Positions 47,100-55,820 of a stretch of DNA of 64,000 nucleotides are shown piece by piece (position 1 is the first letter of the stretch; every line of letters starts with the position of its first letter). Under the pieces are notes generated by a model. The model was not told where the DNA came from, did no database searches, and was given only the letters and a program-made list of their open reading frames with translations. The stretch is from positions 10,380 to 74,379 of the forward strand of contig DVIQ01000099.1 in the NCBI GenBank assembly GCA_018711185.1. Direction: 5' to 3'. Origin of the DNA: Candidatus Limivivens intestinipullorum (lineage in GTDB: Bacteria; Bacillota; Clostridia; Lachnospirales; Lachnospiraceae). The translations under genes and the position numbers were made by a program.

Positions 47100-47447
47100 A
47101 TGACGAAGGGATTGTCTGGAAAAACGACGCGGCGGATCCGCCGGGTTCTGGAGTATATCCGGCTTCATGTTCATACGAACGTCACCAGATCAGAGGCCGC
47201 GGGGCTTATTAACCTGAATGAGGAATATTTTTCCAAGGTATTTAAGACGCATACGGGTATGTCCTTTAAAAACTATGTGCTGTCGGAAAAAATGAAAGCG
47301 GCCATGAATCTTCTGGCAAACACAAATCTTTCCGTCGGACTGATCGCTTCGAAGGTCGGCTTTGATAATTTTTCGCATTTTTCAAAAACATTTAAAAAGT
47401 ATACGGATTTATCCCCACAGGAGTACCGCAGAATCTACCAGAAATGA
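47100..47447 (+). pseudogene. AraC C-terminal HTH fragment lacking a sensor domain
   Basis: 115 aa with YFSKVFK and GFDNFSHFSKTFKKYT; starts 45 bp after the ATPase stop with no clear RBS. Confidence 0.6.
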
Positions 47448-50102: not shown

Positions 50103-50660
50103 ATGAAAATCGCGATTATCGGCTACAGCGGGTGCGGAAAATCCACGCTGGCCAGGTATCTTGGAAAAAAGTATAAGGCAGAGGTTCTGTATCTGGATAA
50201 GGTGCACTGGCTTCCGGGATGGCGGGAACAGGAGCGCGATAGAGAAAAGGCAGCAGTGCGCCGGTTTCTGGATACCCATTCCTCCTGGGTGATCGACGGA
50301 AATTACGGGGATCTGCTTTACGGAAGGAGACTTCGGGAGGCAGACCAGATTCTGTTTTTAAATTTTAACCGGGTTGCCTGCCTGTGCCGGGCACTCAAAC
50401 GATACCTTCGTTTTCGCGGGCAGAGCCGGGATTCCATGACCCCTGGCTGCCCGGAAAAGCTGGACGCGGAATTTGTCCGCTGGATTCTCTGGGACGGCAG
50501 GCGGAAAAAATACCGGGACCGGTATCGGGCCGTGATGCGGAAGTATCCGGAGAAGGTGGTGGTGATACGGGGGCAGAGGGAGTTGGAACGGTATAAAAAA
50601 TCATTACCGCTTTCGCCTGCATCTTTTACTTACGCTGCAAACAGCAGATGTTTGCATTAA
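50103..50660 (+). CDS. adenylate kinase-like P-loop protein (topology modulation/FlaR family)
   Basis: IAIIGYSGCGKSTLA, LDKVHW, WVIDGNY and GCPEKLD motifs. Confidence 0.8.
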   Translation: MKIAIIGYSGCGKSTLARYLGKKYKAEVLYLDKVHWLPGWREQERDREKAAVRRFLDTHSSWVIDGNYGDLLYGRRLREADQILFLNFNRVACLCRALKRYLRFRGQSRDSMTPGCPEKLDAEFVRWILWDGRRKKYRDRYRAVMRKYPEKVVVIRGQRELERYKKSLPLSPASFTYAANSRCLH

Positions 50661-51120
50661 ATTTGCTTATTGCTTTTCTGCACTCCATCAGCCAAATTGG
50701 GGTTCCTTGGCAGCAGAGAAATTGACTGCCCTAAACTGGTATGCAGCTGATTTTTTTTATATTCTTTAGGCGTCAAGCCGGTGATTTTCTTAAATACCCG
50801 GTAGAAATGCTGCACACTGGTAAAACCGCATTCCATGCCGATTTCGATAATCGGCATATCGCTGTTCAGCAGCAGCTTCTGGGCTTCCAGGATTCGCTTG
50901 TATTGGAGATAATTCACCAGAGAAATTCCCATGGTTTTGCGAAAGATCCTGCAGATATAGGACTTGTTCAGAAAAAAATTTTCTTCAAGATCCTGCAGAG
51001 TAATCTGCTGAGAGTAATGGTCATTAATATATACTAAAATCTGCTCCACCGGGGAGAAATGGCGGAGAAAACGGCGTCCTATCTGACTTCTTATACGGAT
51101 AAATCCGTGGGATGATAAAA
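50657..51120 (-). pseudogene. AraC C-terminal HTH fragment (AT-rich)
   Basis: YINDHYSQQITLQDL, NKSYICRIFRK and GFTSVQHFYRVFKKITGLTP; the upstream part of the track ORF is the antisense shadow of the next gene. Confidence 0.55.
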
Positions 51121-51196
51121 ACAGCAGTGTTTTGCGGACGAAGCGTATTTGTATGTCGATAGAGAAACAGGAAAAAGAAAGGGAACAAATCAGAAT

Positions 51197-52813
51197 ATGA
51201 GGATTATCGAGACGGAGAATTATCAGGAGATGTCGGAAGTTCTTCTGCGCCTTTTTACGGAACAGATTCGAAAAAAGCCGGACAGTGTGCTTTCCTTTAC
51301 CACCGGAAAGACGCCGGAAATGTTTTTGGAGCTGCTGGCGGACGCAATCAATGAAGGACTTGACGTAAGCCAATGCGTTTTTTTGAATCTGGATGAATAT
51401 GTGGGGCGAAGAGACATGCCCTACAGTGTCTATTCTTTTATGCACAGCCATTTGTATGACCGTATTGCCGCGGGCCCCTGCTATGCGGATATGATGGACG
51501 CCCAGGCGGAAAACGCAGAGGCGGAGCTTGCCAGGTATGCCGGGGTGCTGGAGCGCTATCCAAGAGATATTCAGCTTCTGGGACTTGGAACCAACGGGCA
51601 CATCGGCGCAAACGAGCCGGGAACGCCCTTTGACTCGTCTCTGTTTGTGGCGGACAGCTTTGCGTCCACCATCGAGGCAACACAGAAGCTGTTCCATTTA
51701 AAGCGGGAGGAGACGCCGGTTCAAATGTATACCATGGGCTTTCAGGAGATCATGGCGGCGAAGCAGGTAATCCTGGCGGCGTCCGGGTCCGGAAAGGCTG
51801 AGGCGGTGCGGGCGCTGGCAGAGGGAGAGATCACGGAACAGGTGCCGGCCTCCCTGCTGCGTACCCATGAAAATTTTACGCTGGTGATCGACAAAGAAGC
51901 GGGCGCTCTGCTGAGACAGGACGGATGGAATTTCCTTTCCACCTGGGAGATGTCGGAGACGGGAATCCGGCGCGGAATCCAGCGCTACAAAGAATCCGGC
52001 GAACTGGAATGCGCGGTGACGGAGGCGGTGAAAGCGGTGGAGGACGAAGAAAGCTTTCATTCGGTGGGATACGGCGGCCTGCCAAACCGGGAAGGACGGG
52101 TGGAACTGGACGCGGCCTACATGGATGGAAATACCTTGGGAGCAGGAGGCGTCATGGCGGTCCATGAAATCAAAAATCCCATTGAGGCAGCCATGCTTCT
52201 CAGTCACAAAAAAAGGGACTGCTTCCTGGCAGGGGAGGGAGCGGAGAAATTTGCCAGAAGTCAGGGACTGGCCTTCGCGGATATGCTGTCAGAAGAAGCC
52301 AGACGGCAGTATGAGGAGGTCAAAGAGAAAACAAAAGAAGAAATGGAGGCCTACCAGGGACATGATACGGTATGCGTGATCGGAAGAGACGAGCAGGGCT
52401 CCATGGCCTGCGGCGTGTCAACCTCCGGCCTGTTTTTAAAGCATCCGGGCAGAGTAGGAGACAGCCCGATCATCGGCTCCGGCTTTTATGCGGACTCCCA
52501 GACGGGCGCCGCGGCGGCTACAGGCGTCGGGGAGGATATTATGAAGGGCTGCCTGTCCTTTGCCATCGTAGAAAGAATGGCCGCCGGACAGCCGGTGCAG
52601 CAGGCATGCGAGGATGTTTTGCGGGCCCACGCGGAAAAGCTGGAACGCCTCGGGGGCGAATGCGGAAGTATGTCGGTGATTGCCATGGATAGAAAAGGGA
52701 ATATCGGGGCAGCCACAAACCTGGATCGCTTTCCGTTTGTAGCCGGGCGGTACACCGGGGAACACAAGTTGATGACTGTGAAAAATTGCATGAAGAACGT
52801 GATTCAAGCGTGA
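51197..52813 (+). CDS. fusion of glucosamine-6-phosphate deaminase (NagB-like) and N4-(beta-N-acetylglucosaminyl)-L-asparaginase (Ntn hydrolase)
   Basis: N-terminal TTGKTP, NLDEYVG, GLGTNGHIGANEPG and PASLL; C-terminal STW, SVGYGGLPN, ELDAAYM, HDTV and GRVGDSPIIGSG; one continuous frame. Confidence 0.85.
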   Translation: MRIIETENYQEMSEVLLRLFTEQIRKKPDSVLSFTTGKTPEMFLELLADAINEGLDVSQCVFLNLDEYVGRRDMPYSVYSFMHSHLYDRIAAGPCYADMMDAQAENAEAELARYAGVLERYPRDIQLLGLGTNGHIGANEPGTPFDSSLFVADSFASTIEATQKLFHLKREETPVQMYTMGFQEIMAAKQVILAASGSGKAEAVRALAEGEITEQVPASLLRTHENFTLVIDKEAGALLRQDGWNFLSTWEMSETGIRRGIQRYKESGELECAVTEAVKAVEDEESFHSVGYGGLPNREGRVELDAAYMDGNTLGAGGVMAVHEIKNPIEAAMLLSHKKRDCFLAGEGAEKFARSQGLAFADMLSEEARRQYEEVKEKTKEEMEAYQGHDTVCVIGRDEQGSMACGVSTSGLFLKHPGRVGDSPIIGSGFYADSQTGAAAATGVGEDIMKGCLSFAIVERMAAGQPVQQACEDVLRAHAEKLERLGGECGSMSVIAMDRKGNIGAATNLDRFPFVAGRYTGEHKLMTVKNCMKNVIQA

Positions 52814-52948: not shown

Positions 52949-55600
52949 TTACTTAAACTTCGCCTTCACAGAAATCCCCCTCTGCCTCAGCAATTTCTTG
53001 TAAGCCGTCTTCTTCGCCTTCGGAACCGTCACGGTCAGCTTCTTATAGTTTTTGCTTCCCGCTTTCGTAAAGGCACTGCTCTTAACCGTGCCGGAAGTCA
53101 GCTTCTCCGTCTTTATGGTGATGGAGGTAAGCCTGGAGCAGTTGTAAAACGCCCGGCTGCCGATCTTCGCCACCTTTGACGGAAGGGTAATCTTCGTAAG
53201 GGACGTGCAGTTGGCGAAGGCGGAGGTCCCGATGGAAGTCACATTCTTCCCAAGGGTTACGGAAGTCAGCTTCTTGCATCCGTAGAAGGCCTTGGTGTCG
53301 ATGGATTTGACGCCGCTTCCGATCTGTACCTTTTGCAGGGCGGTGCAGCCGCTGAAGGCGCCGGCTCCGATGCTGGTGACGCTTCCGCCGATGGTTACAT
53401 TTTTCAGCCGCTTGTTGTTTCTCAGCGCGTTGTCTGAGATGGCGGTTACCTTGTAGGTGACGCCCTTCAGCTTGATCTTGGACGGAATAGTTAGGGAAGT
53501 GCTTTTTACGTTTTTCGCGCTTGTATATGCCACGGTGCTTCCCTTCTTCGTAACCGTGTAGACGCTCTTCGTTTTGGAATCCGTCAGCTTGGTTCCCACG
53601 GCCGGCGAGGTGATTTTGAATTTCACGGAGAGGGTACCCTCAAAACGGCCTGTGCCAGTGACTTTCAGTGTAGCGGTTCCCGGCTTGGTGTTGTTTGAGT
53701 AGGATACCTTATATTCTGTTCCCTTTTTCAGGGTACGGCTGCCAATTTTCACCTTTAAGGTTGACGGCTCAACCGCCTTGCCGGCGAAGGTGTAGGAACT
53801 TCTCACGCCGCTGATCTTCGCGTTATCCAGGGTGAGATAGTAAGTGATTCCGTTTCGCTTGGCGTATTTCGCTGCCTGGGAATTATACTCCGTATGAATC
53901 GCGGCATATACCACATGGCTCTGGTCACCGACCCAGTAGGAGCCGGTCCAGAGGATATCGTCCCCGATGGAAGTTACGCTTGCGGGAATGGTGATTTTTT
54001 CCAGATTCCCGCAGTTGTAAAAGGCTTTCTCTCCGATGCGCTTTAAACCGGATTCGATTTCGACCTCGGTGAGGCTGCTGAAAGAGGAAAAGCATTCGTC
54101 CGCTATAGCGGTAATTCCCTTTTTGATTACAATTTTTTTCACCTTGTCTTGAAGAGACTTCCATCTGCCGGGATAATAGACCGAACTGTAGGAAGTGGTT
54201 GACAGGGGAGAACGGTAGGATTCCTCCGGAACGGAAACCTCGCCGCTTCCGGATATGGTGAGGACGCCGTTGGAATACTTCCAGGTGGCGTTTTCCCCTG
54301 CCACGCGGTACGCTTTTTTGCTTGCCGAACCGGTCTGGGCGTTGATGGAATAAAAATTCACCATGTTTCCGTTGGAAGCGTAGTATACCACCTTTGAATC
54401 CTTTACAATGGGCTGGCACTCTGAAATCGGCGCGGCGCTTGTGTATTCTTTGCCGATTTTGTTCCCGTTTCCGTCGAGAAACACATAGTGGAGAATGCTT
54501 CCGGAGAGGCTGTCGTCGGTGCTGGCGTTATCCCCGGAGGAGGTCTCTTCCCAGGAAACAAGGAAGCGGTTGTCATTGATTTTGGTGAGCTTGACGCCCA
54601 GGAAGGATTTCCCGCCGCCCGTATAACTGGTGAGCCATTTTACCGTGGTGGCGTCCTCTGAAAAATTCGACAGGGGAGTTACCGTCAGATAGATGTTGTG
54701 GGGCGTGTCTGAGGTAACGCTGTCGTATTTGGACTGATCGATGGAGGTTCCGATGCAGAGCACGTTGCTTCCGGAAATTTCCATGCCGTCCACGCTGGCG
54801 TAGCAGTTGATGGCCCAGACGGAATCCCAGGCGCCGCCGTAATCCAGGACGGAGAGCTTCTGACTATCGAGCGTATCTGCGTTGTATTTTGTCAGGGTAG
54901 TGCATCTGGAACCTTCGCTCTGTTCCAGAACGTATAAATCCGAGCCATTGCATTTAATATACTGGGCGAAGGAGTGCCACAGATCGCTGCGGACAATTTT
55001 TCCTTCCATGGTGGAGGTGTTCACCGCGATCATCAGAAAGCCCTGGTGGCCCTGGCCCACCGCCTCGTCCACATACCCTTCGTGGCCGGTGACGATATAG
55101 AGGGTTCCGCCCTGCTCCGCGAATTCCACGCATCCGTAGTCAAAGGGATAACGCACATCGCCGCCGAAAAGATCCGGGTTGCTGGTGATGCTGGCAACTC
55201 CGATCCGCCTCCAGTTTGTGTCGTATTTAATGACACGAATGACCTCCGCGGTATCGGATTCGGCAGTGTTTGCCTTTCCCTCCACGAGATAGTAGGCGTT
55301 TGAACCGGCATAGAAACCGCCCCACAGATCCAGATCCATGGCCAGCGTTTTTTTGCTCTGGATGTTGAAATTGTTGTCATAGTATTCGATGTGAACGGTG
55401 TCGTCGAGGTAAAAAACCCGCATGTAGCCGCTGCTGGTGGCCACGAGGCTTGAAGATTTCCGCAAACCGACATCGAGGTTGCTGGCGGCGGTGGGCACGA
55501 GGTTTGATGCCGCTTCTGACGGGAAACCCGGCAGAAGCGCGAAAAACAGAGCCCCGCAGAAGAGAAACAGCGCGGCCAGCTTTTGTTTCAGAACATTCAT
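52949..55600 (-). CDS. secreted surface protein with BspA-type leucine-rich repeats and Ig-like segments
   Basis: Signal peptide; repeated LxxVxIxxxVTSIGxxAFxxC units; YSNNTKPGTATLKVTGTG Ig/MBG-like segment; basic C-terminus. Confidence 0.8.
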   Translation of the reverse strand: MNVLKQKLAALFLFCGALFFALLPGFPSEAASNLVPTAASNLDVGLRKSSSLVATSSGYMRVFYLDDTVHIEYYDNNFNIQSKKTLAMDLDLWGGFYAGSNAYYLVEGKANTAESDTAEVIRVIKYDTNWRRIGVASITSNPDLFGGDVRYPFDYGCVEFAEQGGTLYIVTGHEGYVDEAVGQGHQGFLMIAVNTSTMEGKIVRSDLWHSFAQYIKCNGSDLYVLEQSEGSRCTTLTKYNADTLDSQKLSVLDYGGAWDSVWAINCYASVDGMEISGSNVLCIGTSIDQSKYDSVTSDTPHNIYLTVTPLSNFSEDATTVKWLTSYTGGGKSFLGVKLTKINDNRFLVSWEETSSGDNASTDDSLSGSILHYVFLDGNGNKIGKEYTSAAPISECQPIVKDSKVVYYASNGNMVNFYSINAQTGSASKKAYRVAGENATWKYSNGVLTISGSGEVSVPEESYRSPLSTTSYSSVYYPGRWKSLQDKVKKIVIKKGITAIADECFSSFSSLTEVEIESGLKRIGEKAFYNCGNLEKITIPASVTSIGDDILWTGSYWVGDQSHVVYAAIHTEYNSQAAKYAKRNGITYYLTLDNAKISGVRSSYTFAGKAVEPSTLKVKIGSRTLKKGTEYKVSYSNNTKPGTATLKVTGTGRFEGTLSVKFKITSPAVGTKLTDSKTKSVYTVTKKGSTVAYTSAKNVKSTSLTIPSKIKLKGVTYKVTAISDNALRNNKRLKNVTIGGSVTSIGAGAFSGCTALQKVQIGSGVKSIDTKAFYGCKKLTSVTLGKNVTSIGTSAFANCTSLTKITLPSKVAKIGSRAFYNCSRLTSITIKTEKLTSGTVKSSAFTKAGSKNYKKLTVTVPKAKKTAYKKLLRQRGISVKAKFK

Positions 55601-55820
55601 ACACTTTTCCTCCTTCATTTCTTTCTACATATAATATTAGAGATGCCGGGAGGAAAAGTCAATAGCGTGATTTCCATATCTTTGAAAGTTTTCTCCCTTG
55701 AAAAACCGTACCTTATGGGCTATAATTAGTTGTCAAAAGCAGCTGCGGAACAGCTGCCTGCAAACGAGGGACCGGACGTATCCGGTTGCGGAAGAGAAGG
55801 TCCCTCCGGTTAGGAGAACT

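Follow-up and report, generated by a model that had tools for sequence, protein, structure and literature searches.

A rare fusion of a NagB-like domain with a predicted glycosylasparaginase in a gut Lachnospiraceae bacterium, apparently orphaned by deletion of its uptake operon

The window analysed here, a 64,000-nucleotide stretch of the genome of Candidatus Limivivens intestinipullorum, carries a genuine and very rare gene fusion in which a NagB-like domain and an Ntn hydrolase of the glycosylasparaginase (GA) type share one reading frame. Our preferred reading, to which we assign a probability of roughly 0.6, is that the product is a cytoplasmic bifunctional catabolic enzyme which arose by fusion of a gene pair and was orphaned by deletion after its acquisition, its present use being uncertain.

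The fusion gene and its occurrence

The frame and its surroundings are laid out in Table 1. Pfam places Glucosamine_iso at residues 9-225 (E 2.7e-20, 73.6 bits) and Asparaginase_2 at residues 255-510 (E 7e-66, 222.8 bits against a cut-off of 27), and an AF2 model of the 538-residue protein has a mean pLDDT of 92.5; among solved structures, none covers both NagB and GA domains. The domain identities given in a first-pass annotation of this DNA (NagB-like and Asp-Thr Ntn hydrolase, joined by an RQDG linker) hold, and all the motifs that it named are present: DEY at residues 66-68, GHIGANEP at 134-141, GHD/TV at 388-392, with T391 (codon 52367-52369) as the putative nucleophile, and RVGDSP at 419-424. 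The N-terminus (MRIIETENYQEMSEVLL...) is devoid of a hydrophobic leader and the protein looks cytoplasmic, which fits the earlier remark that a signal peptide is absent. Self-cleavage would yield an alpha piece of ~43.4 kDa, including the NagB half, and a second piece of 15.5 kDa, so that the suggestion that NagB stays on the alpha chain is borne out as a prediction. Comparison of the tails of the fusion clusters shows that the window copy is without the conserved C-terminal ~15 residues, a loss overlooked in the first-pass annotation.

Table 1. Coordinates of the fusion gene, its parts and the neighbouring remnants in the window
Feature	Position	Strand	Remarks
AraC-family regulator remnant	50657..51055	-	C-terminal HTH only; Pfam HTH_18; gene callers start at GTG 51049 (130 aa)
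LplD-like GH4 3' remnant	51053..51118	+	last ~20 codons and double stop; short remnant, modest evidence
Short untranslated leader	51119..51196	+	SD-like purine-rich AAAGGGA ~12 nt before ATG
NagB-like::glycosylasparaginase fusion gene	51197..52813	+	538 aa; single ORF without internal stop; PF01182 + PF01112
NagB-type deaminase domain	51197..51913	+	residues 1-239; D66, H135, E140, K200 conserved; signature A138 + T162
Linker RQDG	51914..51925	+	four codons, residues 240-243; replaced in relatives by a stop codon followed by a new start (junction alignment)
Glycosylasparaginase (Ntn hydrolase) domain	51926..52813	+	W250, H389-D390-T391, R419/D422, T442-G443; conserved C-terminal tail missing

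Independent assemblies (NCBI, ENA and Logan) contain the exact 538-residue protein on 26 contigs, alongside several 538-residue variants that are at least 98.5% identical. Five sister clusters of fusions, at 64-70% identity and with the same junction geometry, bring the number of fusion clusters to six. A search of representatives of 50%-identity clusters found both halves matched by a single representative out of 1.84 billion (1.84e9). The first-pass annotation had allowed that the fusion might already be widely characterised, and our literature searches found nothing on either the nagB-like/GA pair or the fusion.

An error of sequencing or assembly, in a strain that truly has two genes, is an extremely improbable source of the fusion. 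Close relatives do differ by one stop codon between the genes, but the identical product comes from different sources on its 26 contigs, the same junction recurs in the five other clusters, and the truncations in one record (L054) sit together with split tyrS and AAA genes, resembling long-read indel noise. On the same grounds, a 362-residue family member in that record was rejected as a true truncation. Family members of 219 residues lie on contigs of 0.7-2.9 kb, the ends of which may cut them. The sole apparent truncation that could be traced to a real insertion is a split into 337 + 176 residues (L052, L053), where a 186-nt MITE-like element has broken the gene of another strain.

Identity of the two halves

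Alignment and fold comparison support the assignment of the Ntn half to the glycosylasparaginase type rather than to the plain isoaspartyl peptidases, and the first-pass call of a glycosylasparaginase thus held, the HDT site, a Trp at the sugar-stacking position and the top matches by PDB search and by fold being all of the GA kind. It matches residues 8-281 of PDB 1p4k with an E of 2.5e-48, scores 168 bits to GA in a phmmer search of the PDB as against at most 134 to ASRGL1 and ~123 to EcAIII, and has GAs as its top ten Foldseek matches (TMt 0.90-0.94 and rmsd 1.7-2.3 to GA precursors). The putative autoproteolysis site H389-D390-T391 falls on H150-D151-T152 of 1p4k; isoaspartyl peptidases have Gly-Thr there, and GAs have His-Asp-Thr. 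The Arg and Asp that hold the alpha-carboxylate and alpha-amino groups are present (R419 and D422 in GRVGDSP), as is the Thr-Gly oxyanion hole (T442-G443 in ATGVGE). We judged the GlcNAc-stacking aromatics against Trp11 and Phe13 of the Elizabethkingia enzyme: W250 aligns with Trp11, and the position of Phe13 is taken by Met252, a Met conserved in this Firmicutes clade. The GA of Elizabethkingia (Flavobacterium) meningoseptica (1p4k, 9gaa, 2gaw) has the fold of this half at 34-36% identity and has in common with it the His-Asp-Thr site, Trp11, Arg180/Asp183 and the oxyanion hole. It is, however, a secreted and standalone protein, whereas the fusion has no signal peptide and bears the 239 residues of its NagB domain on the alpha chain; its Phe13 position is occupied by Met, and the C-terminal tail typical of its clade is missing.

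We consider it very unlikely that this half is instead a general isoaspartyl peptidase/asparaginase, the Asn-derived ammonia of which would feed, or couple to, the reversible NagB reaction in the manner of a GlmS analogue. PF01112 does include such enzymes, there is a weak match to the NCBIfam beta-aspartyl-peptidase model (133.7 bits against a cut-off of 567), and the domain logic is like that of GlmS, in which an Ntn amidase is joined to a sugar-phosphate isomerase; GA is nevertheless favoured by the His-Asp-Thr site, by W250 and by the order in which PDB and fold matches rank, and the context, with its uptake systems and glycosidases, is catabolic. Both GlmS and the NagB::LmbE/PIG-L protein (PRK02122, which scores 119 bits against the N-terminal half of the fusion in NCBIfam) likewise join an amino-sugar isomerase/deaminase to an amidohydrolase, the partner being a glutaminase in the former and a de-N-acetylase in the latter, as opposed to the glycosylasparaginase here.

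The NagB half (residues 1-238) aligns over its full length with residues 1-240 of B. subtilis NagB (2bkv; E 2e-46, 38% identity, Foldseek TMt 0.94), a monomeric, non-allosteric GlcN-6-P deaminase; the residues at the D72, H143, E148 and Lys208 positions (E. coli numbering) are conserved in the fusion. D66, H135 and E140 are invariant across 57 close and 66 more distant homologues, and align with Asp72, His143 and Glu148, the catalytic residues of E. coli NagB, Asp72 being the one that abstracts the C2 proton. The earlier alternative of a GlcN-6-P sensor is unsupported because this catalytic Asp/His/Glu set is intact. Phosphate binding in the E. coli enzyme involves Arg172 and Lys208, and the canonical motifs are GHIGFNEP and A-N-x-R-F-F. 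K200, at the Lys208 position, is invariant; at the Arg172 position this protein has K164, and the GA-linked clade has K, N or D. Ala138 stands for the canonical Phe and Thr162 for the canonical Asn without exception in the subfamily, whereas the genome's own nagB (C109) retains F, N and R at these positions. By these residues the NagB half falls into a separate subfamily with the signature A138/T162. The half differs from B. subtilis NagB also in the variable Arg172 position, in the fused GA and in NCBIfam scores below cut-off (165.6 against 236.9 for TIGR00502, with all other NagB and AgaI models below their cut-offs too). This subfamily identity had been overlooked in the earlier annotation. 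That the subfamily is always GA-linked was ruled out, two Bacillaceae members being without a GA nearby; one of them adjoins a Glc-family PTS EIICB.

Operon of origin and the deletion in the window

A conserved Lachnospiraceae operon, with a divergent AraC regulator, encodes an LplA-like binding protein, two permeases, an esterase, a URO-D-like protein, an LplD-like GH4, in some cases an M24-like protein and, as its last genes, the nagB-like and GA pair. At other loci the pair stands behind a PTS EIICB, or behind an ABC transporter accompanied by GH36. The two genes are split and adjacent in relatives (L016, of Robinsoniella type, L017, G041, G112 and L056, of Blautia type), with a single in-frame TAA plus 6 nt between them in G047/L017; fused orthologues sit within an intact operon (L001 and L031), and in our tree the GAs of the fusions group together with support, inside the LPL-operon GAs. 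Comparison of these loci shows that the fusion arose when neighbouring nagB-like and GA genes lost the stop codon that separated them, in a single Lachnospiraceae lineage. The adjacent pair is much commoner than the fusion, and the derivation from it had been overlooked earlier. The ancestral operon has the LplA-like binding protein, two permeases and LplD-like GH4 in common with B. subtilis lplABCD, to which it adds the esterase, the URO-D-like protein, sometimes the M24-like protein, and the nagB-like/GA pair. Its GH4 matches LplD with an E of 1e-147, and the closest solved relative is annotated as an alpha-galacturonidase (PDB 3fef).

The ancestral operon yielded no endo-GlcNAc-ase, fucosidase, NagA or kinase in our searches, and the conserved partners (LplD-like GH4, esterase, URO-D-like protein) do not look like N-glycan enzymes. 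The host N-glycan-remnant setting proposed in the first-pass annotation is accordingly left unsupported, and any host N-glycan link is conjectural, as is the precise part played by the NagB half. The related idea that the fusion unites the first and last steps of GlcNAc-Asn breakdown is weak: it passes over three steps for which the operon never has the genes, and with kinase and NagA always missing from it, a true GlcN6P deaminase would act three steps away from GA. Some related lineages have no NagB half altogether and keep the GA; the NagB half having been discarded there, the GA evidently has no need of it, and the locus is prone to decay.

Cytoplasmic, self-processing GAs have already been characterised in L. 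casei, where AsnA2 (alf-2 cluster) releases Asp from imported GlcNAc-Asn (PMC6960285), and in E. faecalis, where EgaG (ega locus) is described as doing likewise (10.1101/2024.05.30.596650). These loci set the GA beside an MFS transporter or a Lac/Cel-type PTS, a peptidase, GntR and, in L. casei, a ROK kinase, and neither has a NagB partner or fusion; the partners of our fusion are LplABCD-like or missing. The window locus holds only the fused GA and the truncated AraC, with no ega/alf-2-type transporter or peptidase, and the loci of relatives, though served by ABC or PTS systems, combine these with GH4 or GH36 rather than with PepV or GntR.

Homology to AraC ends at 51055 in the window, and the remnant is 74% identical at the amino acid level (75% at the nucleotide level) to the C-terminus of the intact operon's divergent AraC in G041 (L046:19418-19759). 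The GH4 remnant, GEMAEKTASYL..., resembles the GH4 C-termini SEMVEKTANYL (L031) and GEMVENTKDYL (L001); it was detected by protein-level search alone, and a DNA-level search of 51056-51196 against the operon loci found no homology. The AraC break and the GH4 remnant together show an apparent deletion junction, with roughly 8 kb lost. Both deletion endpoints are still readable, and the window copy is a clear example of operon erosion. The first-pass suggestion of an acquired and trimmed locus with a divergent AraC remnant is thus strongly borne out: the remnant is real, comprises the HTH only and abuts the 3' end of the GH4, and the fusion gene is absent from all seven of the other species of the genus that we searched. 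A 346-residue minus-strand ORF (50657-51697) was rejected as a full AraC, since its last ~130 residues match and the rest is antisense to the fusion gene; its "matches" to other fusion loci arise solely from this antisense overlap. Within the genus the fol operon is conserved and the region upstream of folC differs, such that the empty site is not reconstructable. A search of the organism's own genome for the missing operon returned only paralogous ABC systems and a GH4 on C46, which is 54% identical and lies in an unrelated GH43 locus; GH85 was not found in this genome. A nagB-nagA pair elsewhere in the genome should be able to finish GlcNAc-6-P catabolism.

It is possible, though rather unlikely, that the gene is a decaying leftover without physiological role, open only because the deletion is recent. 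The transporter, esterase, URO-D-like gene, GH4, native promoter and the regulator's sensor domain have been deleted, the C-terminal tail is gone, and a promoter scan of the leader region performed no better than shuffles and gave no convincing promoter; one allele carries the disruptive MITE-like insertion, and erosion has gone further in related lineages. Yet the 538-codon frame and all catalytic residues are intact in most assemblies of the species (the 26 contigs plus variants), an SD-like run precedes the ATG, and the GA could still use substrates imported by other systems. Between the window and allele L052 there are four SNPs and one amino acid difference in the first 336 residues; about three of the SNPs appear silent, counts too small to test.

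Proposed function and its meaning

We return to our preferred reading of a bifunctional catabolic enzyme, for which substrate, both activities, self-cleavage and expression are what we infer rather than show. The GA half would cleave itself between D390 and T391 and hydrolyse the amide that joins Asn to a beta-linked sugar, most probably in GlcNAc-Asn or its 6-phosphate, giving aspartate and a glycosylamine that would decay to sugar and ammonia. The N-terminal half, its catalytic set intact, would be an aldose-ketose isomerase/deaminase of the monomeric, NagB-like kind known from Bacillus and, held covalently on the alpha chain, would deaminate an amino-sugar phosphate derived from the same substrate. 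As to history, the stop codon was lost between the last two genes of the conserved uptake operon, and the locus was acquired and then trimmed by one deletion that took away the N-terminal two-thirds of AraC and everything onwards up to the last part of the GH4 gene. This deletion stripped the fusion gene of its transporter, partner enzymes and native promoter, and therefore left it an orphan of uncertain present use.

To our knowledge, the step from glycosylamine to sugar and ammonia has hitherto been assumed to be spontaneous. One might imagine that the two halves instead catalyse consecutive steps, the NagB-like half acting on the GA product, 1-amino-GlcNAc or its 6-phosphate, and not on GlcN-6-P; we think this unlikely. 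The NagB-like partner would then be a new enzyme, a glycosylamine deaminase, and the pair or fusion would complete the conversion of glycosyl-Asn to Asp, sugar and NH3 at neutral pH, a proposal that is correspondingly speculative. Fusions and tightly coupled pairs usually join consecutive steps, and here the two genes stay together behind three kinds of uptake system, with neither nagA nor a kinase beside them; A138 and T162 are invariant beside the catalytic His/Glu, and the Arg172 position is relaxed. The product 1-amino-GlcNAc cannot be metabolised and breaks down under acidic conditions (PMC6960285), so an enzyme could help at neutral pH, and the ring-opening machinery would hasten the loss of ammonia in a neutral cytoplasm. 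Such an enzyme is, however, without known precedent, the invariance of D66 at the Asp72 position is what one would expect of a true isomerase-deaminase, Bacillaceae have members of the A138/T162 subfamily with no GA nearby, and the GA is kept in lineages without the NagB half.

As a single orphan gene in this genome, the fusion probably carries little physiological weight. Gene fusions are a strong hint that two proteins work together, and in gut Lachnospiraceae the fusion and the commoner adjacent pair connect the cleavage of glycosyl-asparagine with a separate NagB subfamily, a link on which we found no paper in the literature searched. The questions that they raise are which sugar-asparagine compound is imported by the LplABCD-like, GH36-type and PTS-type operons, and whether the NagB-like protein is an ordinary GlcN-6-P deaminase or the finisher of the GA reaction.

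Authenticity and distribution of the fusion

The NagB-like and glycosylasparaginase (GA) domains are encoded in a single uninterrupted frame of 538 codons in the window sequence, as the first-pass annotation had proposed, and the motifs it had assigned to each half are all in place. In Pfam, residues 9-225 match Glucosamine_iso and residues 255-510 match Asparaginase_2, both with scores well over the cut-offs. The N-terminal half aligns over its full length with NagB of B. subtilis, a monomeric enzyme (2bkv residues 1-240, E 2e-46), and the C-terminal half aligns with the Elizabethkingia glycosylasparaginase precursor (1p4k residues 8-281, E 2.5e-48), the linker between them being only four residues long (RQDG, 240-243). 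AlphaFold, given 90 homologues, predicts the structure with confidence (mean pLDDT 92.5, pTM 0.73). When this predicted model was searched with Foldseek, its N-half matched B. subtilis NagB (TMt 0.94) and its C-half GA precursors (TMt 0.90-0.94), and no solved structure among the matches spans both halves.

The fusion is not an artefact, as judged from independent assemblies. NCBI, ENA and Logan together supply 26 contigs encoding the identical protein, as well as several 538-aa variants at 98.5-99.8% identity. The same architecture recurs in five further clusters made at 90% identity, whose proteins are 553 aa long and 64-70% identical, with a common junction geometry (...EA[AG]SLL-xxxx-W[NS]F[LIV][SA]TW...). 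It is very rare. When all of 1.84 billion cluster representatives were searched with HMMER, exactly one protein matched both halves (P0003), all remaining matches being to one half only. Among 300 genera of the family, sampled at one genome per genus, about 8 of the 300 genomes encode a close GA homologue, and only G041, G112 and G047 also carry a matching nagB-like gene (~60% identity), in each case as a separate gene adjoining GA. Neither GA nor the fusion is present in the seven other species of the genus that were searched.

Identity of the two halves

The C-terminal half has a His-Asp-Thr site where isoaspartyl peptidases have Gly-Thr; present too are the Arg/Asp pair that would hold the free amino-acid end, a Thr-Gly oxyanion hole and the Trp that stacks on the sugar, and comparison with GAs gives clearly higher scores than comparison with ASRGL1 or EcAIII. 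We therefore class it as a glycosylasparaginase by predicted activity, which supports the initial assignment of this Ntn half over a plain isoaspartyl peptidase. The NagB half retains D66, H135, E140 and K200, aligned with the catalytic D72, H143 and E148 and with Lys208 of E. coli NagB. It falls below all NCBIfam equivalog cut-offs and belongs to a subfamily in which Ala138 and Thr162 are invariant, as opposed to Phe and Asn in canonical enzymes, and in which the Arg172-aligned position is variable. This subfamily also occurs in Bacillaceae with no GA nearby, once beside a Glc-family PTS EIICB and an RpiR regulator. On contig C109 the window's genome encodes an ordinary nagB paired with nagA, and this nagB keeps Phe and Asn at the two positions. 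A third, divergent NagB-like gene (contig C87) is 28% identical to the fused N-half, has Gln at the catalytic Glu position, and adjoins a BadF/BcrAD-type (GlcNAc-kinase-like) ATPase and a DUF3502 binding protein.

Origin from a gene pair and proposed function

In relatives, a nagB-like gene (239-249 aa) lies directly upstream of a GA gene (311-320 aa), with a gap of 21 nt in the Robinsoniella-like locus L016 and 6 nt in L017; the split pair is also found in G041, G112 and the Blautia-type locus L056, and matching lengths of the longest contigs point to a dozen or more additional metagenomic clusters with both genes on one contig. Because the two genes of G047/L017 are in the same frame with a single TAA between them, loss of one stop codon would be enough for fusion. 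Maximum-likelihood analysis of the GA domains groups the fused proteins in a clade with good support (97/94), nested among the GAs of LplABCD-like operons.

The fused orthologues of L001 and L031, like the split pairs of L016, G041 and G112, lie at the 3' end of one operon type, which comprises a divergent AraC regulator, an LplA-like binding protein (~555 aa) with two permeases, an Abhydrolase_7 esterase, a URO-D-like protein, a GH4 enzyme, an M24-like protein in some loci, and finally nagB-like followed by GA. The GH4 enzyme is close to B. subtilis LplD (PDB 3fef, annotated alpha-galacturonidase; E 1e-147). In two of the intact operons GA is followed by a conserved protein of 530 aa that matches nothing in Pfam, the two copies being 92% identical. 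In L017 the pair closes a unit of a Glc-family PTS EIICB and a DeoR regulator, and in L056 it comes last in an operon that also encodes an ABC transporter, GH36, a DUF4432 protein and a 1108-aa DUF5107/TPR protein. Since it closes LplABCD-like, PTS and GH36 units, we regard the pair as a portable two-gene module serving different importers. No nagA or sugar kinase was seen in these three kinds of locus.

We favour, with a probability of roughly 60%, a cytoplasmic enzyme with two functions. Its GA half would self-cleave at D390/T391 and hydrolyse a glycosyl-asparagine, most likely GlcNAc-Asn or GlcNAc-Asn 6-phosphate, and the NagB half would ride on the alpha chain and deaminate an amino-sugar phosphate. 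Against this, the operon never carries genes for the three intermediate steps that are missing, and the partners it does carry do not resemble N-glycan enzymes. A more novel alternative, that the NagB-like half acts on the glycosylamine released by GA, seems to us quite unlikely.

Erosion of the locus

The divergent AraC gene in the window retains its HTH domain only. Its homology with the regulator of G041 (74% protein, 75% DNA) starts at SPVEQIL and ends at 51055, and the plus strand from 51053 encodes ...GEMAEKTASYLTSYTDKSVG, then two stops; this segment matches the last ~20 residues of the operon GH4 (SEMVEKTANYL in L031, GEMVENTKDYL in L001). These coinciding breaks therefore indicate one deletion, joining AraC codon ~215 to GH4 codon ~440. 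By comparison with L001 it spans roughly 8 kb, and it took out the AraC sensor domain, promoter region, transporter, esterase, URO-D-like gene and almost the whole of GH4. The first-pass view of an acquired, trimmed locus thus proved correct, both deletion ends still being readable as an AraC HTH remnant and a GH4 3' remnant. The neighbours are unrelated: upstream lie tyrS and the gene of an AAA kinase, downstream a BspA-type gene and the fol operon; the BspA-type gene sits within a variable region from tyrS to the fol operon. Two truncated AraC genes within 4 kb suggest that the region is rearrangement-prone.

Features located in the window or in related loci (named where outside the window)
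Feature	Position	Strand	Remark
NagB-GA fusion gene	51197-52813	+	
HTH-only AraC-family ORF	47100-47447	+	115 aa, no sensor domain; 3.5 kb upstream
BspA-type leucine-rich-repeat protein	52949-55618	-	889 aa; convergent with fusion gene
Insertion in other-strain allele	L052:4010-4195		
Third NagB-like gene, window's genome	G000:C87:116366-118108		
Blautia-type operon	L056:444-11699		
Eroded GA locus	L005:5900-8000		
530-aa protein	L016:10201-11793		
530-aa protein	L047:7633-9222		

The window protein stops early, without the ...F.P...W..Y.GD tail kept in fused and unfused relatives, and no remnant of the tail is present in other frames at the locus. In one allele of the source species (L052, L053) the fusion gene is split at window ~52200 by a 186-nt AT-rich insertion, which has 9-nt terminal inverted repeats (TGAACTTCC...GGAAGTTCA) and has duplicated 5 bp of its target (CAGTC); the window's genome has no copy of it. 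We think it unlikely that the gene is a functionless relic in this genome, a reading which concerns present role rather than chemistry and so can hold together with the others.

The closest 'stand-alone' GAs (P0008, P0009, P0013; 316-322 aa) nest within the fused clade. L005 has the final NagB-domain residues in frame upstream of the GA start and retains a fragmentary GH4, the URO-D gene and half of the esterase; L018 likewise retains GA with a fragmentary GH4, half esterase and NagB-domain end. These loci represent independent erosion of the same operon. In such lineages the NagB half was lost secondarily and GA kept, now beside an Opp-type peptide transporter; GA is thus of use even where the NagB half is absent.

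Cytoplasmic GAs for imported GlcNAc-Asn are already known from L. casei (PMC6960285) and, as cited in 10.1101/2024.05.30.596650, from the E. faecalis ega locus (Combret et al. 2023). Our literature searches found no publication on a nagB-like/GA pair or fusion. The fusion is of moderate interest, carrying less weight as a gene of this particular genome than as a pointer to a functional link between NagB-like proteins and GA.
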